NCBI GenBank assembly: GCA_019455285.1
Contig: JACFMS010000014.1
Span: 9,925 to 73,924, forward strand
Source: Sphingomonadales bacterium
GTDB lineage: Bacteria > Pseudomonadota > Alphaproteobacteria > Sphingomonadales > Govanellaceae
Reading direction: 5' to 3'
Length of the DNA: 64,000 bases
Below, piece after piece: positions 34,896 to 59,252 of this stretch. Below the pieces are notes generated by a model. That model made no database searches. It saw nothing but the letters and a program-made list of their open reading frames with translations, and was not told where the DNA came from. How positions within the stretch are numbered: the stretch's first letter is position 1; each line of letters starts with the position of its first letter. The position numbers and the translations under genes are program-made.

Positions 34896-36413
34896 ATGGC
34901 GTTATCTCCAAGACTGGAGCTTAAGCATACCCAGACGCTGGTGATGACGCCGCAGCTGCAACAGGCGATCAAGCTGTTGCAGTACACCAATCTCGAATTG
35001 AACGACTTCGTGGCTCAGGAAGTGGAACGCAACCCGCTCTTAGAGTTCGGCGAAGAGGAAGGCGGCAGCCAAGGCGACAGCCAAAGTGATAGCGAAGCGC
35101 CGCAGCCGGATGCCGAAGGGGCGGCCACCGCCAGCGATATTATGCTCAACGATGGCGCACCGCAGGCCAGCGAGGCGCTCGATACCGACTTTGAGAATGT
35201 TTACAACAACGACGCCGCCCCTGATCGGACCGAAAGCGGGCTGAGCTCAGCTCTGAACGGCGGCAGCGGCGGACGTACGGATTTCAGCGACTCCACCCTC
35301 GACTTTCAGGACAATCTGACAGCCGAGACGACGCTTAAGGATCATTTGGAAAGCCAGCTCGGTCTGGCGGGGTTCACGCCGCCCGAGGAGATGATCGCCC
35401 ATTTCCTCATCGATCTGGTGGATGAAGCCGGCTATATCCGCGAGGAGTTGCAGGGGGTTGCCGAAAAGCTCGACTGCGAGGTTCAGGAGGTGGAGGCGGT
35501 GCTGGCCCGCTTGCAGGAATTCGAGCCGGCCGGCGTGTTCGCCCGCAGCCTGCAGGAATGTCTGGCCCTGCAACTGAAGGAGCGCGACCGCTATGATCCG
35601 GCCATGGCGGCGCTCATGAACAACCTTGATCTGGTGGCGCGGCGGGATATGGCGGCGCTAAAGCGGCTGTGCGGCGTCGACGACGATGACTTGGCCGACA
35701 TGATCCATGAGCTGAAGGCGCTAAACCCTAAGCCCGGGCTCGCCTTTTCCAGCGAAACGGTGCAGGTGGTGGCGCCCGATGTGTTCGTTCGTCGCAGCGC
35801 CAAGGGCAAATGGCAGGTGGAGCTTAACAACGATACCTTGCCCAAGGTGCTGCTCAATGCCCGCTACCACGCCGAGGTTGCCGGCCGGGTCCAAAACAAG
35901 GAAGAAAAAGCCTTTGTTTCCGAGTGCTTAAGCTCGGCCAACTGGCTCGTCAAAGCGCTCGATCAGCGGGCGCGCACGATTTTGAAGGTGGCGAGCGAGA
36001 TCGTGCGCCAGCAGGAGGGCTTCTTCCTCTCTGGGGTGAAGCATCTCAGGCCCTTGAATTTAAAGACCATTGCGGACGCCATCGCGATGCATGAAAGCAC
36101 CGTCAGCCGGGTCACCACCAACAAATACCTGGCCTGCGACCGCGGCCTGTTTGAGCTGAAGTACTTCTTTACCTCAGCCATCCCGGCATCCGGCGACGGC
36201 GAGGCCCATTCGGCGGAAGCGGTTAAGGAGCGTATCAAGGAGTTAATAGATGCGGAGAATCCGGCCGATATCCTGTCGGATGACAAGCTGGTCGAAATCC
36301 TGCGCGGGCAGGAAATCGACATCGCCCGCCGGACGGTAGCCAAGTATCGGGAAGCGCTCAAGATTCCCTCCTCGGTACAGCGCCGGCGGCTGAAATCCTT
36401 AGGCCTGCAGTGA
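34896..36413 (+). CDS. rpoN: RNA polymerase sigma-54 factor
   Basis: N-terminal region I (LELKHTQTLVMTPQLQQAIKLLQ), acidic region II, core-binding region and RpoN box (ARRTVAKYREAL). Confidence 0.97.
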   Translation: MALSPRLELKHTQTLVMTPQLQQAIKLLQYTNLELNDFVAQEVERNPLLEFGEEEGGSQGDSQSDSEAPQPDAEGAATASDIMLNDGAPQASEALDTDFENVYNNDAAPDRTESGLSSALNGGSGGRTDFSDSTLDFQDNLTAETTLKDHLESQLGLAGFTPPEEMIAHFLIDLVDEAGYIREELQGVAEKLDCEVQEVEAVLARLQEFEPAGVFARSLQECLALQLKERDRYDPAMAALMNNLDLVARRDMAALKRLCGVDDDDLADMIHELKALNPKPGLAFSSETVQVVAPDVFVRRSAKGKWQVELNNDTLPKVLLNARYHAEVAGRVQNKEEKAFVSECLSSANWLVKALDQRARTILKVASEIVRQQEGFFLSGVKHLRPLNLKTIADAIAMHESTVSRVTTNKYLACDRGLFELKYFFTSAIPASGDGEAHSAEAVKERIKELIDAENPADILSDDKLVEILRGQEIDIARRTVAKYREALKIPSSVQRRRLKSLGLQ

Positions 36414-40101: not shown

Positions 40102-40818
40102 TCACGATGCGTTGATCTGGCGGCGGCCAAATCCCGCCGGCCGGACAAAGGCTTCGCGTCGCAAGCTAGCGTTGGTTTGAAAGACAGTGCGCCGGAAATT
40201 CTTTTCGAGCCGGTCGCTAAGATAGCTCCACAGATTGAAGATTTCCTGGGCCGAATTGCCGTTAGGGGCCAGTTCGACGACGGTGCGACCGTCGATCATG
40301 CTGGAGGCGAAATCCGTGCGATGATGAATGGTGACGGGGGCGACCGTGCCATGCTGGGAGAGGGCAACGGCGGCATCGGCGGTAATGCGGGCGCGCGGCG
40401 TCGCGCCATTGACCACGAACACCACCGGCTTGCCGGCGCGCTCCGCCAGCTCCACGGTGGCGCCGGCGGCGCGCAGATCGTGGGGGCTCGGCCGGGTGGG
40501 GATGACCACCAGGTCGGCGATGGCGATCACGCTTTGGATCGCCGTGGTGATCGCCGGCGGGGTGTCGATGATGGCGAGCTCGAAGCCCTGCGCCCGCAGG
40601 TTATCAAGATCAATCAACAGCCGGGCAATGGTGGTATGGGCAAACGCCGGCGCTTGTTCATGGCGGGCATTCCACCATTCCGACAAGCTGCCTTGGGGGT
40701 CGGTATCGACCAAGACCACCGGCCCGGCTCCGGCACGTTCCGCCTGAACGGCCAAATGTCCGCTTAAGGTCGTCTTGCCGGACCCGCCCTTTTGCGAAGC
40801 CATAGCGACTACTTGCAT
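40102..40818 (-). CDS. ParA/MinD-family (deviant Walker A) ATPase
   Basis: MQVVAMASQKGGSGKTTLSGHLA (KGGxGKT), VVLVDTDPQGS, LAIIDTPP. The small size (about 238 aa) resembles type Ib plasmid ParA. Confidence 0.85.
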   Translation of the reverse strand: MQVVAMASQKGGSGKTTLSGHLAVQAERAGAGPVVLVDTDPQGSLSEWWNARHEQAPAFAHTTIARLLIDLDNLRAQGFELAIIDTPPAITTAIQSVIAIADLVVIPTRPSPHDLRAAGATVELAERAGKPVVFVVNGATPRARITADAAVALSQHGTVAPVTIHHRTDFASSMIDGRTVVELAPNGNSAQEIFNLWSYLSDRLEKNFRRTVFQTNASLRREAFVRPAGFGRRQINAS

Positions 40819-51640: not shown

Positions 51641-51794
51641 AATAAACCTCTTTGGCTATTTTTAAGGCATTTCTGGTTTTATTTCAATAATAATCCTAAA
51701 AATATAACCAATATGGAAGAAAATGATTGACAGCCCAATCGCATCGGTGATAGCTGCCAAAATGTACCAATTTGGTAAATTTATGGAGGTGCAT

Positions 51795-52604
51795 ATGCGG
51801 CGCAACACACCGCACGATGGCAGCGGCGCGGCCAATCCTGTTGTTGGCAGAGGGGCGATACGCCTCTTGTTACGGCTAAGCGCCGGCGAGGCGGCCCAAG
51901 CCACTGATGATGGTGTTTTCCTCGGCGGCGAAGACGTGACGGCGGAGGTGGCGGCGCTGATCGCCCATGATCTGGCGGCGCGGGATCGTCGGGGTGGGGT
52001 GCGGCTGACCGCGCCGGGCGCCGTTTATGCCAAGCGCATGGCCGCGCGCTCGGCCCTCCGCCGCGCCGGGCGGCAGGGGGATACGGCGGCGCTGGCGGTG
52101 ATCGCGCCGTTTCGCGATCAGCATCAAGACATCGATATCGTGGTGACGGCTAGTGGCGACAAAGTTGCGGAACGGCGCTTCATCAACCATCGGGAATGCC
52201 CATTGGCTTGGCTGCGCCGGCGTCGCGACCGGGCCGGCCGGCCGCTCATCGACGATCGCCAGTTCGAGGCCGGCATGCACTTGCGCAATGACTTCGAGCG
52301 CGGCGGCCTATCGCCGCGGGTTACCGCCTCCTGGAGCGCGCTGCCGGTGGGTCGCGCCGGGGCGGCAAGCCGGCGCGGCGGCCTTGATCCCAGTGATAGT
52401 CAGATGGGCGCCCGTCTGCGCTTCCGCCGCGCCGTCACCGCTCTGGGGCCAGGTCTTGCCGAGGTGGCGATCCGCACCTGCTGCGCTTATGAGGGCCTGG
52501 AAGCGGTGGAGAAAAGCCTGGACTGGCCGGCGCGCTCGGGCAAGGTGGTGCTCAGCTTGGCTTTATCTCGGCTGGCCGATTATTATGGAATTGGAAAAAA
52601 ATAA
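51795..52604 (+). CDS. DUF6456-type protein, candidate GafA/GafZ-like activator
   Basis: Start at MRRNTPHDG (GGAGG 5 nt upstream). Conserved-looking INHRECPLAWLRRRRDRAGRPLIDDRQFEAGMHLRNDFERGGLSPRVTASW and LGPGLAEVAIRTCCAYEGLEAVEKSLDWPARSGKVVLSLALSRLADYYG. The family assignment is from memory only. Confidence 0.55.
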   Translation: MRRNTPHDGSGAANPVVGRGAIRLLLRLSAGEAAQATDDGVFLGGEDVTAEVAALIAHDLAARDRRGGVRLTAPGAVYAKRMAARSALRRAGRQGDTAALAVIAPFRDQHQDIDIVVTASGDKVAERRFINHRECPLAWLRRRRDRAGRPLIDDRQFEAGMHLRNDFERGGLSPRVTASWSALPVGRAGAASRRGGLDPSDSQMGARLRFRRAVTALGPGLAEVAIRTCCAYEGLEAVEKSLDWPARSGKVVLSLALSRLADYYGIGKK

Positions 52605-52766: not shown

Positions 52767-53225
52767 ATGGCGAAGGCCACGAGCTGGACGCCGCGCAAGC
52801 GCGGCCAATTCCTCAGCGCGTTGCGCAAAACCGGCAATGTCACGGCGGCGGCCGAGGCGGCGGGACTGTCGCGCAGCCAGGCCTATCAGCTGCGGCGCAG
52901 CGATGACGGTTTTCGCCAAGATTGGGACGACGCCTTGCTGGCGGCGATCGACGATCTGGAGGAGGAGCTGCGGCGTCGCGCGCTGCACGGGGTCGAGCAG
53001 CCGATCTACTACGGTGGTAAGGAGTGCGGCCGGGTGCGGACCTATAACGACGCCCTGGGCATGTTCCTGCTGCGCGCCCGCCGCCGGGAGCTGTTCGACA
53101 AAGCAGGCGGGGATGAGTTGGCAACCGCCATCGACGCCTCGCCGCTAGCCGAGATCCAAGAACGCTTGAAGCGGTTGCGCGCCCGTCAGGCCAAGGGCCG
53201 GAAATCAGACGGAGATAAACCGTGA
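52767..53225 (+). CDS. terminase small subunit (HTH type)
   Basis: WTPRKRGQFLSALRKTGNVTAAAEAAGLSRSQAYQLRRSDDGFRQDWDDAL...; GTGA overlap with terL. Confidence 0.78.
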   Translation: MAKATSWTPRKRGQFLSALRKTGNVTAAAEAAGLSRSQAYQLRRSDDGFRQDWDDALLAAIDDLEEELRRRALHGVEQPIYYGGKECGRVRTYNDALGMFLLRARRRELFDKAGGDELATAIDASPLAEIQERLKRLRARQAKGRKSDGDKP

Positions 53226-54550
53226 GCGGCGGCGAGGCGGAGCAACGCTCGATAGCCGAGGCGGTGGCTGCCCTGCCGACGGGCGATGAGGCGGATATCC
53301 TGGGCGCGCTGAAGATCGCCGACCTCACAGAGCTTCTGTATGAGTGGCGGTTCTGGGCCCGGCCCCAGCAGCTGCCGCCGCCGGGAGAATGGGCGACCTG
53401 GCTCATTCTGGCCGGCCGCGGCTTTGGCAAGACCCGCACCGGGGCGGAGTGGGTGCGCAGTCTGGCGGAACGCGCCAGCCCCGGTTTTCGCATCGCGTTG
53501 GTGGGAGAGACGGCGGCCGATGTGCGGCAGGTGATGGTGGAGGGTGAATCAGGCCTCCTGCCCAGCGCCCGGCCGGACTTCAGGCCCCGCTTCGAACCGT
53601 CGAAGCGCTGCCTAACTTGGCCCCAGGGCGCGCAGGCGTTTCTCTACTCGGCGGATGATCCGGAGCAACTGCGTGGGCCGCAGCATCAGGCGGCTTGGTG
53701 CGACGAGCTGGCGAAATGGCGGCGCGCCGAGGAAACCTGGAGCAACTTGCAACTGGGCCTGCGTCTCGGCGAGCGGCCGCAAACGGTGGTGACGACGACC
53801 CCTAGGCCATTGAAGTTACTAAAAGATTTACTCGCCGACCCGATGACCGTGGTGACTCGCGGCTCGACCTATGACAACCGCGGCAATCTGCCGCCGGCGT
53901 TTTTCCGGCAGGTGGTGGAAAAGTACGCCGGCACGCGACTGGGCCGGCAGGAGATCGAAGCCGAAATTCTCGAAGACACTCCGGGCGCGCTGTGGTCGCG
54001 AGACTTGGTGCAATCCTGCCGCGCCGCCGGCGCGCCGATCATGCGCCGGGTGGTGGTGGGCGTCGATCCGCCGGTGACCGGCGGCGAGAAGGCTGATGCC
54101 TGCGGCATCGTGGTGGCCGGCGCGGGCGAGGATGGCCGCTATTACGTGCTGGCGGACCGCACCACGGTGGGAGCCAGCGTCCACGGCTGGGCGCAGGCGG
54201 CGGTCGCCGCTTACCACGACCACGAAGCCGACCGTCTGGTGGCGGAGGTGAACAATGGCGGCGATCTGGTGGCCGCCGTCATTCGCCAGATTGACTCGAC
54301 CATCAGCTATCGCGCGGTACGGGCCAGCCGCGGCAAATGGGCGCGCGCCGAACCCATCGCCGCGTTATATGAACAAGGTCGGGTTCGCCACCTGGCGGCG
54401 CTGCCGGCGCTGGAGGAGCAGATGACCAGTTACGTGCCGGGCGGGGATATGGCCTATGGCAGCCCGGACCGGCTGGACGCTCTGGTGTGGGCGCTGAGCG
54501 AGTTGGCGCTCGGCACAAGCGCCAACCCGCGATTACGAATGGTCAGCTAA
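53222..54550 (+). CDS. terminase large subunit (GTA/HK97-associated type)
   Basis: 442 aa. Walker A-like ILAGRGFGKTRTGAEW, Walker B-like AAWCDELAKW, and a C-terminal RNaseH-like nuclease (VGVDPP...ACGIVVAG...). Confidence 0.92.
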   Translation: MSGGEAEQRSIAEAVAALPTGDEADILGALKIADLTELLYEWRFWARPQQLPPPGEWATWLILAGRGFGKTRTGAEWVRSLAERASPGFRIALVGETAADVRQVMVEGESGLLPSARPDFRPRFEPSKRCLTWPQGAQAFLYSADDPEQLRGPQHQAAWCDELAKWRRAEETWSNLQLGLRLGERPQTVVTTTPRPLKLLKDLLADPMTVVTRGSTYDNRGNLPPAFFRQVVEKYAGTRLGRQEIEAEILEDTPGALWSRDLVQSCRAAGAPIMRRVVVGVDPPVTGGEKADACGIVVAGAGEDGRYYVLADRTTVGASVHGWAQAAVAAYHDHEADRLVAEVNNGGDLVAAVIRQIDSTISYRAVRASRGKWARAEPIAALYEQGRVRHLAALPALEEQMTSYVPGGDMAYGSPDRLDALVWALSELALGTSANPRLRMVS

Positions 54551-54551
54551 G

Positions 54552-54902
54552 TTATTGAGCGCGCGCGGCTTTATAGGCGCGAATGGCCTCATTGAATTCG
54601 TTGCCCGTCGCCACTTCGGCATCAACCGCTGCGTTATAGCGTTCGACAAAGCTTTTCTGCAGATCGGCCGTCAGTTGTTCCTTGGGAATCAAGGCTTCCT
54701 GGGCCTGCAGGCAATTGCGAAACGTCTCGCTGTCGGCGAGGAATTTTTTAACCGCGCTCTGGGCAGCGATCATATCCTCCTGGGTGGCGGCGGCGCCGCT
54801 AGGGATGGCCGGCGACGGCGGCCGGGTGCAATCGTCAGCAAAGGCGCTGCCGGCACTGAGTGCTAAGGTCATAGTAAAGGCAATGGTCACAATAGATTTC
54901 AT
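54552..54902 (-). CDS. small secreted protein on the opposite strand (moron-like)
   Basis: MKSIVTIAFTMTLALSAGSAFA signal (GGAGA 8 nt upstream). The helical mature part has two Cys. Convergent with terL with a 1-nt gap. Confidence 0.62.
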   Translation of the reverse strand: MKSIVTIAFTMTLALSAGSAFADDCTRPPSPAIPSGAAATQEDMIAAQSAVKKFLADSETFRNCLQAQEALIPKEQLTADLQKSFVERYNAAVDAEVATGNEFNEAIRAYKAARAQ

Positions 54903-55207
54903 GAAGCAACGTCTCCAATGAGCAAACCCACGACCGACCGGGATCGGCCGCAACGGAGGCGGATTATAAACTGACGGGCCGGCTAAAGGCTAGCCCATCA
55001 CGATTCCATTAATCACCACCAAGTTCGACGACATTCGGGTCGCGGAGCCAGGCTTCCGGCTCGAACGGCGGCGGCGAGGGCATGCCCTGCAGTTTTTCAT
55101 GACAGGCCCTGACCCCAAGTGCAGACCCGCATGACCTTCGCCGCCCGCGACTATTCGGAGTCCAGACCCATTATTTATGAGTCTGGACCCTAGATGTGGA
55201 GAGACAA

Positions 55208-56428
55208 ATGAATTCACTCAGCGACCGCGTAAAACGCCTGTTCCGGCCAATGGGTGCACCGATCGAAGCCAAGCGGAGCGCCGTCGCCGGTCTCCTGGGT
55301 AGTGAATTTTCCACCTGGGTCGGAACGGCGGGGCCGCGCTGGACCAGCCGCAATTACCGCCGGCTGGCCGAGGAGGGCTATCGCAAGAATGTCATCGTCC
55401 ACCGCTGCGTGCGGCTGATCGCCGAAAGCGCCGCTTCGGTGCCGTGGCGGCTGATCCGCTATGGTAAGGCCATCGACCGCCATCCGCTGCTTGACCTCCT
55501 CAATCGCCCCAACCCGATGGAAGCCGGCAAGGCGCTGTTTGAAAATTTCTACGCCTTCTTGAGCATCGCCGGCGACAGCTATCTGGAGATGGTGACCGCC
55601 GCCGATGGCGCGCCCGTCGAGCTTTACGTGCTGCGGCCCGATTACATGAAGGTTATTCCCGGCACCAACGGCTGGCCGCGCGCCTATCGTTATGAGGCTG
55701 GCGGCCAGGTCCATGATTTCGCGGTTGATCAAGTAACCGGCCAATCGGCGATTTTGCACATGAAAACCTTCAATCCCTTAGACGAGACTTATGGCATGTC
55801 GCCCCTGGAAGCCGCCGCCTTCGGTATCGACATCCATAACGCGGCCAGCGGCTGGAACAAGGCGCTGTTCGACAACGCCGCCCGGCCATCGGGCGCGCTG
55901 GTCTATGAGCCGGGCGATGGCGGCCACTTGAGCGATGAGCAATTCACCCGGCTGAAGGAAGAGCTTGCCGATACCTACCAGGGCGCGCTCAATGCCGGCC
56001 GCCCCATGCTGCTGGAAGGCGGCTTGAAATGGCAGCCGATGGCGTTCTCGCCCCAGGATATGGAGTTCGTCGAAGGCAAGCATGTGGCGTCCCGCGAGAT
56101 CACGTTGGCCTTCGGCGTGCCGCCGCTTCTTCTCAATATCCCCGGCGATAACACTTACGCCAACTATCAGGAAGCCAACCGCGCGCTGTGGCGGCTGACC
56201 CTGCTGCCGCTTCTGGAAAAGACGGTTTGCGCCCTTAATCACTGGCTGGTGGATGGTTTCGGCGACGGCTTGGCGCTCGACATCGATCGTGACGCCATCT
56301 CGGCGCTGCAAGCGGAGCGCGCCGCCGCCTGGGAGCGGGTCGGCGCCGCCCGGTTCTTGACTATAAACGAGAAACGCCGGGCGGTGGGCCTGGAGCCGCT
56401 CCCCGGCGGCGATGTTCTAGTGTCCTGA
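55208..56428 (+). CDS. phage portal protein, HK97 family
   Basis: About 406 aa, MNSLSDRVKRLF... (GGAGAG upstream). Conserved portal core (YRKNVIVHRCVRLIAESAASVPW...GDSYLE...FGVPPLLLNIPGDNTYANYQEANRALW). Confidence 0.93.
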   Translation: MNSLSDRVKRLFRPMGAPIEAKRSAVAGLLGSEFSTWVGTAGPRWTSRNYRRLAEEGYRKNVIVHRCVRLIAESAASVPWRLIRYGKAIDRHPLLDLLNRPNPMEAGKALFENFYAFLSIAGDSYLEMVTAADGAPVELYVLRPDYMKVIPGTNGWPRAYRYEAGGQVHDFAVDQVTGQSAILHMKTFNPLDETYGMSPLEAAAFGIDIHNAASGWNKALFDNAARPSGALVYEPGDGGHLSDEQFTRLKEELADTYQGALNAGRPMLLEGGLKWQPMAFSPQDMEFVEGKHVASREITLAFGVPPLLLNIPGDNTYANYQEANRALWRLTLLPLLEKTVCALNHWLVDGFGDGLALDIDRDAISALQAERAAAWERVGAARFLTINEKRRAVGLEPLPGGDVLVS

Positions 56429-56494
56429 TTTGCGAAATTCGCATGATTTCTATATCAGCGCTTAAGCGAATTTCGCAAATTGAAAGGACACTAG
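56417..56494 (+). repeat. structured hairpin element 1 (CTAGTGTC...CTATATCAG...GACACTAG)
   Basis: Hand-paired as a 10-bp basal stem, a 2/5-nt internal loop, a 14-bp upper stem and a 23-nt loop. The 5' arm contains the last portal codons and the stop. Confidence 0.7.
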
Positions 56495-56508
56495 CAACCT
56501 ATTGAATC

Positions 56509-56588
56509 CTAGTGTCGTTTTGGTTTTTGAAGTTCGTGTGAGCGGCCTATATCAGTCATGAAACGAACTTCAAAAACCACGACACTAG
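56509..56588 (+). repeat. structured hairpin element 2 (CTAGTGTC...CTATATCAG...GACACTAG)
   Basis: Hand-paired as a 10-bp basal stem, a 3-nt bulge, a 16-bp upper stem and a 25-nt loop. It has the same termini and loop motif as element 1 but a different upper-stem sequence. Confidence 0.7.
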
Positions 56589-56726
56589 AGGATGCGCCGC
56601 CCGCTGTACCGAAAAGACACAAATTTCTGAAAAATGGACAGCGGAGCTGGGCAATAAAGGGACGGCGGGCGGGACTTTAATTCAAAAAATAAGAAAAATC
56701 CGCGCAAATGCCGGCCAATCGGCACT

Positions 56727-56742
56727 TGGCACGGTTTCTGCT
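56727..56742 (+). promoter_or_regulatory. candidate sigma-54 (-24/-12) promoter
   Basis: TGGCACGgtttCTGCT versus the consensus TGGCACG-N4-TTGCW: correct GG-N10-GC spacing with one core mismatch. Confidence 0.45.
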
Positions 56743-56794
56743 TTGATGAGGTCGAACGATGTTGCCAATGACAAAGACTTTCGGAGCGACGACC

Positions 56795-56977
56795 ATGACC
56801 AGCGGTAAGCGAATGATTCCTCAAGCAGGCAAACGGCGGGTGGCGATTTGGGCCGCCGCCGCATGGCTTGCCGGGGCGGGAAGCGCTTATGCCGAGAAGT
56901 GGCCGAACCTCGATCCGGCTTTTGTCATTCACCCTCTTCACTCACTCACTCCTGCCCCGGCGTTGCGGTCCTGCTGA
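56795..56977 (+). CDS. hypothetical small secreted peptide (60 aa precursor)
   Basis: MTSGKRMIPQAGKRRVAIWAAAAWLAGAGSAYA / EKWPNLDPAFVIHPLHSLTPAPALRSC. GGAG lies 8 nt upstream. Alternative ATGs are at 56759 and 56768. A strong terminator follows. Confidence 0.4.
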   Translation: MTSGKRMIPQAGKRRVAIWAAAAWLAGAGSAYAEKWPNLDPAFVIHPLHSLTPAPALRSC

Positions 56978-57023
56978 GACGGCGCCGCGCCGGACACCAG
57001 TTACCTTCGCGTCGCAAACTAGC

Positions 57024-57051
57024 GGCCTCTCCCCGGAGAGGCCGTTTTTTT
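57024..57051 (+). terminator. intrinsic terminator inside the head module
   Basis: GGCCTCTCC-ccg-GAGAGGCC stem followed by a T8 run. Confidence 0.8.
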
Positions 57052-57076
57052 ATCCATTGATCGCACGACATAGACA

Positions 57077-57397
57077 ATGGCCGATACCGATACCTTTCCT
57101 TATTACCGCTTCGCCCGGCTGGTGCGGCAAGCCAATCTTGAAGGCGCATCGTTCGAGACCTTGCGGCTGTTGATTGCCGAAGCGAGCGATCAGGGCGCGG
57201 CGCGGGCCTTAGAGCGCTGCGGCCTGCACGACCACGACGCCGGACGCGATATCGGCGAACTGCGGGCGCTTCTCGATGCCTGGCGCGACACCAAGCGCAC
57301 GGCGCGGCGCAGCTTGGTGCGCTGGCTGATTTCAACCGCCCTTGCCGCCATGCTGGTGGGCGCGGCAATTAAAGTTCGTCTGCTGCATCTATTGTAA
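57077..57397 (+). CDS. GTA g3.5-like small membrane-anchored protein (DUF6127-like)
   Basis: 106 aa located between portal and protease, as in RcGTA. DIGELRALLDAWRDTKRTARRS followed by a C-terminal TM helix LISTALAAMLVGAAI. Confidence 0.6.
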   Translation: MADTDTFPYYRFARLVRQANLEGASFETLRLLIAEASDQGAARALERCGLHDHDAGRDIGELRALLDAWRDTKRTARRSLVRWLISTALAAMLVGAAIKVRLLHLL

Positions 57398-57420
57398 CTG
57401 ACATCGATCAAGAGGGACAT

Positions 57421-58011
57421 ATGCCCACACCGCTTGCCACAAGCGGCGCCATGACGCGCGCCGAGGGCGGCTATTTCGCCGGTTATGCCAGCGTCTTTGG
57501 CCGCATCGACAAGGGCCGCGATATCGTTGTGAAAGGCGCCTTCGCCCGCTCCATCGTTGAGCGGGGCGCGCGCGGCATCAAAGTATTGTGGCAGCATGAT
57601 CCGCGCGAACCCATCGGGGTTCTGGAGGAGATTCGCGAGGACGATTACGGGCTTTTCGTGCGCGCTCGTTTACTGCACGACGTGCGCCGCGCCAGCGAGG
57701 CGCGGGCGCTGTTGCAGGCGGCGGCCGTTGATGGGCTGTCCATCGGCTATAAAACCATTGCTGCCGACACCGACGAGCGCACCGGCGTACGCCAGTTGAA
57801 GGATGTCGACCTGTGGGAAGTGTCTTTGGTCACCTTCCCGATGCAGGAAGCGGCGCGAGTGGTGCAGTTCAAGAGCGCTGACGGGTGGGCTGACATTGCC
57901 CGCAGGCTGCGGCAATTCGAATGGGGAATGAGCGAGCTCGCCGCCCGCGCACGGCATCGGTCAAGCACAGCCCCGTATTTTAAGGTCACAGACACAAGGA
58001 GGTTCCAATGA
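57421..58011 (+). CDS. HK97-family prohead protease
   Basis: GYASVFGRIDKGRDIVVKGAF...VLWQHD...PIG...GLSIGY...L.EVSLVTFPM: the canonical Peptidase_S78 pattern. Confidence 0.93.
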   Translation: MPTPLATSGAMTRAEGGYFAGYASVFGRIDKGRDIVVKGAFARSIVERGARGIKVLWQHDPREPIGVLEEIREDDYGLFVRARLLHDVRRASEARALLQAAAVDGLSIGYKTIAADTDERTGVRQLKDVDLWEVSLVTFPMQEAARVVQFKSADGWADIARRLRQFEWGMSELAARARHRSSTAPYFKVTDTRRFQ

Positions 58012-59252
58012 CCGTGCAAGAGTTCGACTCTCCCGATACCCGGGAAGTCAAGGCCGCCGTCGACGCGCTAGGACGCGCGTTTGAGGATTTCAAGGCCGCC
58101 AACAACGCAGCGGATGCCGAACACGCGCGGCATGGCACTGTCGATGTGGTGCTGGAAGAAAAGGTGACGCGGCTGAACAAGGAGGTTTCCGCCTTGAATG
58201 GCCGGCTGGAGCGTTTGCAACTTGCCGTCAATCGGCCGCACCGCGAGGGACGGAGCGAGATCTCCGGCCCGGCTGCGGAACATAAGCGGGCATTCTGTGA
58301 GCGTTTCATGCGCAAAGGAAATGAGCAGGGCCTGCAGGAGTTGGAAGAAAAGGCGCTGTCCATCGGCGTCGGCACCGACGGCGGGTATGCCGTGCCGCAG
58401 GAGATCGACCAGAAGATCGACGCGCGGCTGAAGGATTTCTCGCCCATTCGCCGCTTGGCGTCAGTGGTGCAGATCGGCTCGGCCAATTACCGCAAGCTGG
58501 TTAATCTGGCAACCGGTGCGTCAGGTTGGGTCGGCGAAACGGCGGCGCGGCCAGTCACGACGTCGACCCAATTTGCCGAAGTGGTGCCGCCGCTGGGCGA
58601 GATCTACGCCAACCCGGCGGCCACCCAGGCGATGCTCGATGATGCGTTCTTTGATGTCGAAGCCTGGCTGGCGGAAGAAATCGCCGCTGAGTTCGGCATT
58701 CAGGAAGGCGCGGCCTTCGTCAGCGGCAACGGCACCGACAAGCCGAAAGGATTCTTATCCTACACCACGGCGGCCACCAATGACGCTGGCCGCGCATTTG
58801 GCACGCTGCAGCATGTGGTGACTGGCGTAAACGGCGGCTTTCCGGCCAGCAATCCATCAGACATCCTGATTGATCTTGTGCATGCCCTGCGGCCGGTCTA
58901 TCGCGGCGGCGCGGCGTTCGTGATGAACACCAATACCATCTCGCTCATTCGCAAGTTCAAGGATTCCACCGGTGATTATTTGTGGCGACCGGGCCTGGGC
59001 GAGGCCGGACCGGCGACGCTGCTCGGCTATCCGTTGATCGAAGCCCAGGACATGCCGGACATCGCCACCAATAGCCTGTCCATCGCCTTCGGCAACTTCG
59101 AGCGCGGCTATATCATCACCGATCGCACCGGCGTGCGCGTGCTGCGCGATCCGTTCTCGAATAAGCCATACGTGCATTTCTACGCCACCAAGCGCGTCGG
59201 CGGCGGCGTGGTCAATTCGGAAGCGATCAAGCTGCTGAAATTCTCCGTCTAA
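58008..59252 (+). CDS. HK97-family major capsid protein
   Basis: 414 aa with an N-terminal coiled-coil delta/scaffold region (LEEKVTRLNKEVSALNGRLERLQL), then GTDGGYAVPQEID... and a C-terminal ...RVGGGVVNSEAIKLLKF. ATGA overlap with the protease gene. Confidence 0.95.
   Translation: MTVQEFDSPDTREVKAAVDALGRAFEDFKAANNAADAEHARHGTVDVVLEEKVTRLNKEVSALNGRLERLQLAVNRPHREGRSEISGPAAEHKRAFCERFMRKGNEQGLQELEEKALSIGVGTDGGYAVPQEIDQKIDARLKDFSPIRRLASVVQIGSANYRKLVNLATGASGWVGETAARPVTTSTQFAEVVPPLGEIYANPAATQAMLDDAFFDVEAWLAEEIAAEFGIQEGAAFVSGNGTDKPKGFLSYTTAATNDAGRAFGTLQHVVTGVNGGFPASNPSDILIDLVHALRPVYRGGAAFVMNTNTISLIRKFKDSTGDYLWRPGLGEAGPATLLGYPLIEAQDMPDIATNSLSIAFGNFERGYIITDRTGVRVLRDPFSNKPYVHFYATKRVGGGVVNSEAIKLLKFSV

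Follow-up and report, generated by a model that had tools for sequence, protein, structure and literature searches.

We analysed a 64,000-nt stretch of DNA from a Sphingomonadales bacterium (contig JACFMS010000014.1, positions 9,925 to 73,924 of the forward strand; hereafter, the window) that contains a gene transfer agent (GTA) cluster of the RcGTA type. Positions 56727-57051, between the portal gene and g3.5 of this cluster, probably correspond to an independently transcribed, sigma-54-dependent gene for an exported peptide, which would constitute a host-regulated accessory gene of the cluster. The cluster is assigned to the RcGTA type by Pfam matches, which identified a collinear head module (large terminase, portal, g3.5, prohead protease and capsid), and by an associated putative regulator of the GafA/GafZ type. 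The spacer between portal and g3.5 is 648 nt long and contains, in this order, two palindromes, an AT-rich stretch, a sigma-54 site, a GGAG motif with an open reading frame (ORF), and a terminator. An earlier reading of the same DNA, made from the letters alone (the sequence-only reading), had described this unit as a promoter, a tiny secreted-peptide gene and a terminator inserted between the two head genes.

The putative promoter is a sigma-54 -24/-12 element, TGGCACGGTTTCTGCT (56727-56742, plus strand), which matches the consensus and occupies a position conserved across loci. It is an exact match to TGGCACG-N4-YTGCW and the only one in the window, in which 0.04 matches are expected by chance and of which 3 of 100 shuffles yielded a match; against TGGCACG-N4-TTGCW it scores at 11 of the 12 specified positions. 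The whole genome (3.3 Mb) holds just 19 TGGCAC-N5-NTGC sites, about 10 of them intergenic and correctly oriented, and these intergenic sites precede two flagellin genes, a flagellar rod gene, a PII (glnK-like) gene, a PEP-CTERM gene and other secreted-protein genes. The core of TGGCACGGTTTCTGCT is nearly identical to the promoter of the PEP-CTERM gene located beside prsR, TGGCACGGCTTCTGCA. The genome also encodes the proteins that such a promoter needs: rpoN is itself located in this window (~35910-36389; RpoN DNA-binding domain, 232 bits), some 20 kb upstream of the unit, and there are six AAA+ enhancer-binding proteins, namely NtrC, NtrX, PrsR, a Caulobacter-type FlbD and two unnamed proteins. 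A scan of positions 56000-57600 for sigma-70 promoters found none. The unit would be driven by sigma-54 and an activator, with a start of transcription predicted from promoter geometry at 56752-56755 (plus strand), 11-13 nt after the GC of the -12 element. The site and its correct spacing, as proposed in the sequence-only reading, therefore stand. The same reading had placed an IHF-type bend in the A/T-rich tract upstream; the tract is present, but the IHF consensus (WATCAANNNNTTR) was not seen by eye, and neither was a NifA-type TGT-N10-ACA motif.

The strongest argument for the promoter came from a comparison with orthologous clusters, which had been put forward as a check. Relatives (genomes are labelled G, and contigs L) were included in the comparison if at least about 270 nt separated g3.5 from portal, which gave 15 loci: two species of this genus; two species of a sister genus (G004 and G006); a third lineage, represented by one IMG/VR contig and one metagenome contig (L218 and L226); genomes from three other families (G010; G011; G014, G022, G028, G034, G046 and G052); and the contigs L228 and L229, reached through the protein. 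A metagenome scan with the g3.5 alignment returned three loci. In all 15 loci, the gap contains a sense-strand sigma-54 site scoring 9-12 of 12 together with a terminator. The per-locus shuffle p was 0.01 or less in 13 loci, and 0.026 and 0.079 in the other two, and the best antisense scores were 0-8. The site is found 60-175 nt after the end of portal in 14 loci and 302 nt after it in this genus, which additionally has the two long hairpins described below.

In G010, G011, G014, G022, G028, G034, G046 and G052, and in two further contigs, the promoter is followed by an ORF with a signal peptide and then by a terminator. Outside the family, these signal-peptide ORFs are 59-93 aa long and the terminator is located just before g3.5. 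Their products form one family, of which 14 members were found in 5.8 billion proteins, each carrying the annotation of a hypothetical protein, and they are characterized by a signal peptide, an acidic, Pro-rich middle part, often with PAEPIP, and a hydrophobic end (IIIYAV, ILLQWC, ILLIWL). Two members of this slot family were located independently, and they lie exactly between the portal and DUF6127 genes, with sigma-54 sites scoring 12/12 and 11/12 and a terminator each. AlphaFold2 was confident only for the signal-peptide helix of the slot family, the mature part being predicted as disordered (pLDDT, the predicted confidence per residue, 50-60). Searches of Pfam and PHROGs gave no match for either the slot-family proteins or the peptide of this genome.

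Among 21 relatives with portal within 1.5 kb of g3.5, the two genes abut in 10 (gap of less than 100 nt), a comparable unit is present in another 10, and one, with a 191-nt gap, falls in neither class. The statement in the sequence-only reading that canonical clusters have no such unit thus holds for the 10 abutting relatives, but not for the 10 that carry one. Since ten relatives abut and others carry unrelated cargo, the junction between portal and g3.5 is, as judged from these comparisons, a variable slot and a hot spot for cargo, with the sigma-54 unit as its commonest occupant. L034 (from G053) has, ~70-600 nt upstream of g3.5, two small ORFs that resemble by eye a HicB/HicA-type antitoxin-toxin pair, and L022, L035 and L037 carry different ORFs upstream of g3.5. 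Two pattern scans for further units were discarded: TTAYCTTCGCGTCGCA, run over genome contigs, was too short a pattern and gave at least 119 hits, all of them chance-like, and CTTCGCGTCGCA-N1-3-ACTRRCGG, run over viral contigs, gave 16 hits, 15 of which were an unrelated coding motif of a phage gene and one a true strain variant.

These data bear directly on the possibility that the unit is a recent foreign moron, or an insertion resembling a miniature inverted-repeat transposable element (MITE), private to this genome or genus. The regulatory part does have a GC content of 45% (56400-56760, vs 60-68% in the flanks), the two long palindromes share termini and one has a partial copy elsewhere in the genome, ten relatives have no gap at the junction, and the peptide is an orphan. 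However, 15 loci, drawn from four families as well as from IMG/VR and metagenome contigs, have a sigma-54 promoter and a terminator in this slot, the sister genera share both the terminator and the short palindrome found at the portal stop codon, and the GC content of the ORF (62-68%) is host-like, similar to that of the neighbouring genes. Furthermore, a blastn search of a phage collection gave no match, and no transposase or target-site duplication was seen. We therefore consider a private insertion highly improbable, and the insertion peculiar to this cluster that the sequence-only reading implied has to be abandoned, because the slot holds such units in at least four families of the order.

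Phage morons are extra promoter-gene-terminator units found between conserved genes of lambdoid and HK97-like phages, and the unit resembles them in several respects: it is a small additional gene equipped with a promoter and a strong terminator of its own, it is located between two conserved head genes, it gives a discrete RNA, and it is expressed while the structural genes are silent. Unlike a recently gained moron, which is sporadic and of foreign composition, it occupies a slot conserved in 15 loci and across families, and its ORF is host-like in composition. It also differs from phage morons in its sigma-54 promoter, by which it would depend on a host enhancer-binding protein, and in its location in a GTA-like cluster rather than in a phage.

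Direct evidence of transcription was provided by assembled Logan contigs from public metatranscriptomes (wastewater, bioreactor and sludge), which were compared with positions 56000-57800 or 56400-57400. Seven RNA runs from several studies yielded contigs of 244-250 nt, all contained within 56710-57051. The contigs of runs X28, X29, X30, X31 and X36 extend from 56765/8 to 57011/14, that of X27 (56806-57051) ends at the last T of the terminator, and that of X35 covers 56710-56959; contig word depth reached 36-40 in X29 and X30. No contig from these seven runs covers portal or g3.5 in the positions examined. An eighth run labelled as RNA (X25) was left out, as it gave a 22-kb contig and is probably DNA. 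Given that the RNA contigs stay inside the stretch and reach neither flank, and that X27 stops at the terminator T, the data support a self-contained, separately transcribed unit, and they fit the earlier suggestion that its expression is independent of that of the particle genes.

The intrinsic terminator (57021-57051, plus strand) consists of an 11-bp GC-rich stem with a 4-nt loop (57021-57046) and a T-run (57045-57051). The RNA of 57016-57051 folds with -19.9 kcal/mol, and three of ten stem pairs show compensatory changes across genera. The strong hairpin of the sequence-only reading is therefore present, but its T-run comprises seven residues rather than eight. A terminator of this strength, situated 25 nt ahead of g3.5, would halt transcription that arrives from the terminase promoter, and it would therefore have to be overridden when the cluster is induced. 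In Caulobacter, GafZ builds an anti-termination complex by means of which RNA polymerase passes terminators inside the GTA cluster (PMC11150451), and induction of the present cluster would need a read-through of the same kind. The unit may thus be silent or active according to its own activator, with its terminator overridden on induction of the whole cluster.

The location of the unit directly upstream of g3.5, with 25 nt from the T-run to the ATG, would also suit an internal promoter for g3.5, protease and capsid, the ORF and terminator then acting as a leader or attenuator that controls read-through; conditionally bypassed internal terminators are known in GTA clusters (PMC11150451). We regard this as very unlikely, however: the RNA contigs of the seven runs extend no further than 57051 and do not reach into g3.5, the strong terminator showed no evident alternative anti-terminator pairing on RNA folding, the ten relatives without a unit keep g3.5 right behind portal, and the signal-peptide ORFs of 59-93 aa in other families do not resemble leader peptides.

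The transcribed gene contains an ORF of 60 aa (56795-56977, plus strand), preceded by a GGAG ribosome-binding site (56778-56781) that is 8 nt before the ATG at 56795 and is kept in all four strains. We found good evidence that this ORF is under selection as an encoded protein. In a comparison with the diverged IMG/VR strain L217, nine of the 11 differences were at third codon positions (binomial estimate, p about 0.001), and the codon changes comprised eight synonymous and two conservative ones (V16A and A28T, each of which affects the signal peptide's hydrophobic core). In the two remaining sense frames, one synonymous change stood against 9-10 non-synonymous ones, and one of these frames gained a stop; antisense coding was ruled out, because no antisense frame is open and the frame matching the pattern has four stops. 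The predominance of third-position, synonymous changes indicates purifying selection at the protein level. The mature part of 27 residues is identical in L217 despite five silent changes. In the sister species (G001), positions 56659-57065 differ at two sites, both silent in the frame of the ORF, whereas the flanking genes differ at 4-10 sites per 100 nt.

It is hardly credible, in this context, that a promoter-like motif and a spurious ORF have simply arisen by chance in a long spacer, the terminator being an ordinary cluster-internal one. A consensus match is expected 0.04 times per window, and ORFs of 60 aa are common in DNA with 60% GC, but such a coincidence accounts neither for a promoter position conserved across 15 loci nor for the discrete RNA, the bias of substitutions towards third codon positions and the near identity of the stretch between species.

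The N-terminal residues 1-33 (56795-56893) resemble a signal peptide of the Sec type. By inspection and a hydropathy scan, they comprise a positively charged n-region (K5, R6, K13, R14 and R15), an Ala/Trp-rich h-region of appropriate length (10-20 residues), VAIWAAAAWLAGAG, with a peak Kyte-Doolittle value of 1.95, and small residues at -3 and -1 (A-Y-A|E). The product is therefore a short protein that is probably exported and cleaved after AYA, leaving a mature part of 27 aa, EKWPNLDPAFVIHPLHSLTPAPALRSC (56894-56974). The 60-aa ORF with signal-peptide features and a 27-aa mature part, as first read from the sequence, was thus recovered, with purifying selection in addition. This peptide cannot be aligned with the slot family, with which it has in common only the slot, the type of promoter, a signal peptide and a terminator; it may therefore be a strongly diverged remnant of the slot gene or a replacement for it.

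The peptide cannot be the whole story, since the sister genera have lost the ORF and kept the promoter, the terminator and a 3' segment. G004, G006 and L218/L226 retain the palindrome and, likewise upstream, a second site of the TCAATTTGAGACA type; they also retain the sigma-54 element and the terminator, which are separated by ~100-120 nt. These ORF-less forms share no common ORF, and L218 has no ATG at all. The predicted 5' ends of the RNAs of G004 and G006 and of this genus are alike by eye (TTTCGGAGCG vs TTTCCGAGCG). A 17-nt segment, GTTAYCTTCGCGTCGCA, is common to this genus and to G004 and G006 (genus g4), invariant except for one Y position, and is read in different frames in different genomes; in this genome it corresponds to the 3' untranslated region (UTR) segment GTTACCTTCGCGTCGCA (57000-57016, plus strand), which is predicted to be single-stranded and lies directly before the terminator. 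A conserved ORF in this shared segment was considered and rejected, as the frames differ and G006 has no start codon. From these comparisons, what is conserved where the peptide is absent seems to be the RNA or else the pair of promoter and terminator as such, so the RNA may also act by itself.

It is therefore possible, if rather unlikely, that the key product is the RNA and not the peptide, the unit being a sigma-54-dependent small RNA (sRNA) or 3'-UTR riboregulator in which the unpaired GUUACCUUCGCGUCGCA pairs with a target mRNA. The small ORF would then have been added or retained in this genus, giving a dual-function RNA, and in this form the proposal is compatible with a gene for an exported peptide. 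It would account for the persistence, in G004, G006, L218 and L226, of a promoter and terminator around a ~100-120-nt transcript without a shared ORF, and for the invariance of a predicted unpaired 17-nt segment, in differing frames, between genera with g3.5 proteins that are 64% identical. Moreover, the conservation of 56659-57065 between the two species of this genus exceeds what coding would need, and the segment holds ACCUUC, which could, by eye, pair with a Shine-Dalgarno sequence. A site at 40146-40164 (minus strand) is complementary at 17 of 18 positions to the RNA of 57003-57024 and could be a target or a chance match. It falls within the 3' end of a coding region, with the next gene starting ~40-60 nt further on, and the gene containing it presumably encodes a ParA-type ATPase, according to our own reading of the protein sequence. 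However, this single good target match lies inside a coding region and could be due to chance (rough estimate, ~0.05 expected), the segment is absent from L218/L226 and from every unit outside the family, there is no match to an Rfam family, and the ORF of this genus is clearly under protein-level selection. The Rfam scan of 56000-57500 gave only sub-threshold microRNA and STnc100 look-alikes on the hairpins and terminator. GlmY/GlmZ, Qrr and CrcZ are examples of sigma-54-dependent or 3'-UTR-derived small RNAs. The forms of the sister genera resemble these in having a sigma-54 promoter, ~100 nt, a terminator and a conserved unpaired segment before it; the unit differs from them in the lack of an Rfam match, in the selected ORF that the RNA of this genome carries, and in having a target at candidate level.

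Returning to the sigma-54-dependent peptide gene, PrsR, of the PEP-CTERM system, is the enhancer-binding protein that we consider most likely to activate it, although with a confidence that falls a little short of even. According to Haft et al. (2006; PMC1569441), three elements stand in front of PEP-CTERM genes: a 17-nt motif that ends in TTTACA, then a spacer of 62.8 nt on average, then a sigma-54 site. The motif, located 32-92 nt upstream of the sigma-54 site, was assigned by these authors to PrsR. Our genome has prsR (TIGR02915, 711 bits) and 12 PEP-CTERM genes, all of them accompanied by a sigma-54 site and a box, TGTCGGAWWWNYTTACA. These genes are distributed over contigs C9, C15, C33, C36, C44, C50, C55, C56 and C57, with the sigma-54 site 53-97 nt before the start codon (17 nt once, on C9) and the box ~55-100 nt further upstream. 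Two flagellin genes and the rod gene have sigma-54 sites accompanied by sites of the CCCGGCAAA...TTGCCGGG type, which look like FlbD binding sites.

An activator-box matrix was built from the 12 PEP-CTERM boxes of the genome, the units were scanned with it and a shuffle p was computed. Eleven of the 12 true boxes score 19-29, and the twelfth, entered one base short, scores 8.4. Clear boxes were found in the units of G010 (TTCAGGAATTCTTTACA; spacer 86, score 16.1, shuffle p 0.002), G014 (CGTTGGAAATCTTTACA; spacer 63, score 15.4, 0 of 500 shuffles) and G022 (TGACGGGAATCTTTACA; spacer 64, score 17.3, 0 of 500 shuffles). In our unit, the candidate, TTTCTGAAAAATGGACA (56627-56643), is a weak box of the TGTC-N9-GACA class that precedes the -24 element by 84-86 nt (score 9.2, spacer 86, shuffle p 0.09), and in the sister species TGTCTAAAAAAGGCACA is found at the same place on the opposite strand (spacer 86, score 9.1, shuffle p 0.086). 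The likeness to the PEP-CTERM/PrsK-PrsR regulon (PMC1569441) therefore consists of an arrangement of box, spacer, sigma-54 site and single gene for an exported protein, intact in the units of G010, G014 and G022, and of the presence in this genome of prsR and 12 such promoters, one with a nearly identical core. It differs in that the products of the units lack the PEP-CTERM sorting signal, the box of our unit is weak, and the unit is located in a GTA cluster, not near exopolysaccharide genes. The C-terminus of the peptide (...TPAPALRSC) has no PEP motif, membrane helix or Arg cluster, whereas the 12 true PEP-CTERM proteins of the genome have all three.

Further upstream are the two long hairpins, which are specific to this genus. 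Hairpin 1 is a near-perfect palindrome of 78 nt (56417-56494; termini CTAGTGTCC...GGACACTAG; RNA fold -37.2 kcal/mol) and hairpin 2 is a palindrome of 80 nt (56509-56588; termini CTAGTGTCG...CGACACTAG; RNA fold -39.3 kcal/mol). Both of the inverted repeats noted in the sequence-only reading are real, and the distance of 140-310 nt from the promoter given there was measured as 139-310 nt upstream of the -24 element. In most units, a 15-bp palindrome of the GTCCC-N5-GGGAC type overlaps or follows the portal stop codon, as exemplified by GTCCTGATTTGGGAC, which overlaps it in L226, L218 and G004, and the genome as a whole has only 13 palindromes of this type. In this genus, the left half, GTCCTGATTTG, is retained at the portal stop codon and runs on into hairpin 1 (far end ...AGGACAC); the hairpins therefore look like expansions of the old short palindrome. 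Their ends, TGTCC and TGTCG, are similar to the left half of a PrsR box and contain TGTC half-sites. The hairpins might still serve as an enhancer; the weak box at 56627-56643 is better placed for an activator. They may also represent a small family of repeats, or an element that works at the RNA level, at the 3' end of the portal mRNA.

The substitutions found in the hairpins among the four strains are all transitions (for example, 56474 C>T in G001 and TTTGCG>TTTGTG in L225) and, by reading, they preserve G-U pairing in the plus-strand RNA. The left arm of hairpin 2 has a partial copy in the same genome (C57:736-761; 26 nt, 96% identical). The palindromes GTCTCAATTTGGGAC and ATCCCATTTTGGGAC are found ~90-105 nt before two strong sigma-54 promoters, on C36 (~71550, minus strand) and C2 (~125397, minus strand), one of which stands at the head of a locus that encodes a secreted protein of 149 aa and a PEP-CTERM protein.

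Taken together, we propose that RNA polymerase with sigma-54 would bind TGGCACGGTTTCTGCT, that an enhancer-binding protein, with PrsR as the leading candidate, would start transcription near 56753, and that the resulting RNA of ~300 nt would be translated from the ATG at 56795 into a 60-aa precursor. The precursor would be exported and cut after AYA to give the 27-aa peptide, and the RNA would end at the hairpin and T-run (57021-57051). The unit would thus be a local, much-changed form of the slot gene with its sigma-54 promoter, small signal-peptide protein and terminator, and it would be expressed while the particle genes are not. The analysis itself established the sequence features, their conservation, a discrete RNA and selection on the reading frame; we infer the dependence on sigma-54 and on an activator, the start site, export, cleavage, anti-termination and any function of the peptide.

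Several observations weigh against this interpretation. The dependence on sigma-54 is predicted from sequence, and export is predicted from inspection and hydropathy. The PEP-CTERM box of the unit is weak, varies between strains and lies in the most variable stretch, for which reason PrsR is considered here as a candidate activator. The RNA contigs carry no strand, so the direction of transcription rests on the promoter and terminator, and contig ends are not true 5' ends. These contigs also carry the alleles of sister strains (C at 56818 and G at 56824) rather than those of this genome. X35 begins at 56710, 43 nt upstream of the predicted start, which could be due to a second promoter, read-through or DNA carry-over. 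The GC content at third codon positions (GC3) of the ORF is 0.64, vs 0.7-0.8 in most genes of the genome, and the sister genera have no ORF. Finally, a word-based search of 5.8 billion proteins for relatives of the peptide returned just its own cluster of four near-identical sequences, and hhalign of the peptide against the slot family (alignment A4, 14 members) gave a probability of 0.07%, that is, no homology.

The head module surrounding the unit is collinear. The large terminase gene (53222-54550) is followed by portal (55196-56428, plus strand; PF04860, E 8.5e-87), whose stop codon is inside the left end of hairpin 1. After the unit come the g3.5 homologue (DUF6127; 57077-57397, plus strand; PF19622, E 1.3e-22), the prohead protease gene (57421-58011) and the capsid gene (58008-59252). 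Just upstream of the cluster, a gene at 51723-52604 encodes a DUF6456 protein of 293 aa (E 8e-46), which we take to be an activator or anti-terminator of the GafA/GafZ type. Between the large terminase and portal genes, a minus-strand ORF of ~116-133 aa (54552-54953) has a signal peptide and no Pfam match.

The cluster shares with the RcGTA and CcGTA clusters (PMC11150451, PMC10883770) the order of terminase, portal, g3.5, prohead protease and capsid, an adjoining DUF6456 regulator and the presence of terminators inside the cluster. It differs from CcGTA in that the unit carries a sigma-54 element, whereas GTA-related promoters of Caulobacter are sigma-70-dependent and explicitly not sigma-54-dependent (PMC11150451). 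A search of the open-access literature found no link between gene transfer agents and sigma-54, and no description of this sigma-54 small-protein unit in GTA clusters.

In the current view of GTA control, GafA or GafYZ act on a single sigma-70 promoter, and phosphorelays of the host and quorum sensing also contribute. A separate sigma-54 unit in the head module, kept in the same slot in several families, therefore offers a testable handle on the host signals that reach GTA clusters, and this unit is transcribed in wastewater communities with no contigs of portal or g3.5 in the same runs. PrsR has been linked with PEP-CTERM proteins and with the formation of flocs by bacteria of activated sludge. 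We would advance, as a doubtful and frankly speculative idea, that GTA clusters of this order have carried, since before the families split, a gene wired into the host sigma-54 PEP-CTERM/exopolysaccharide (floc, biofilm) regulon, whose small exported, disordered acidic protein ties the state of aggregation to GTA biology, with the RNA taking over where the ORF decayed. If this were true, the slot protein might alter the surface at which particles adsorb or are released, and there would be a regulatory tie between biofilm signalling and GTA gene transfer, which was found in none of the papers searched. For an understanding of how genes flow in biofilms and during wastewater treatment, such a connection of aggregation with gene transfer would be important. 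Should the peptide instead prove unrelated to GTA function, the unit would still be a clean case of a long-lived moron-like gene in a domesticated phage cluster.

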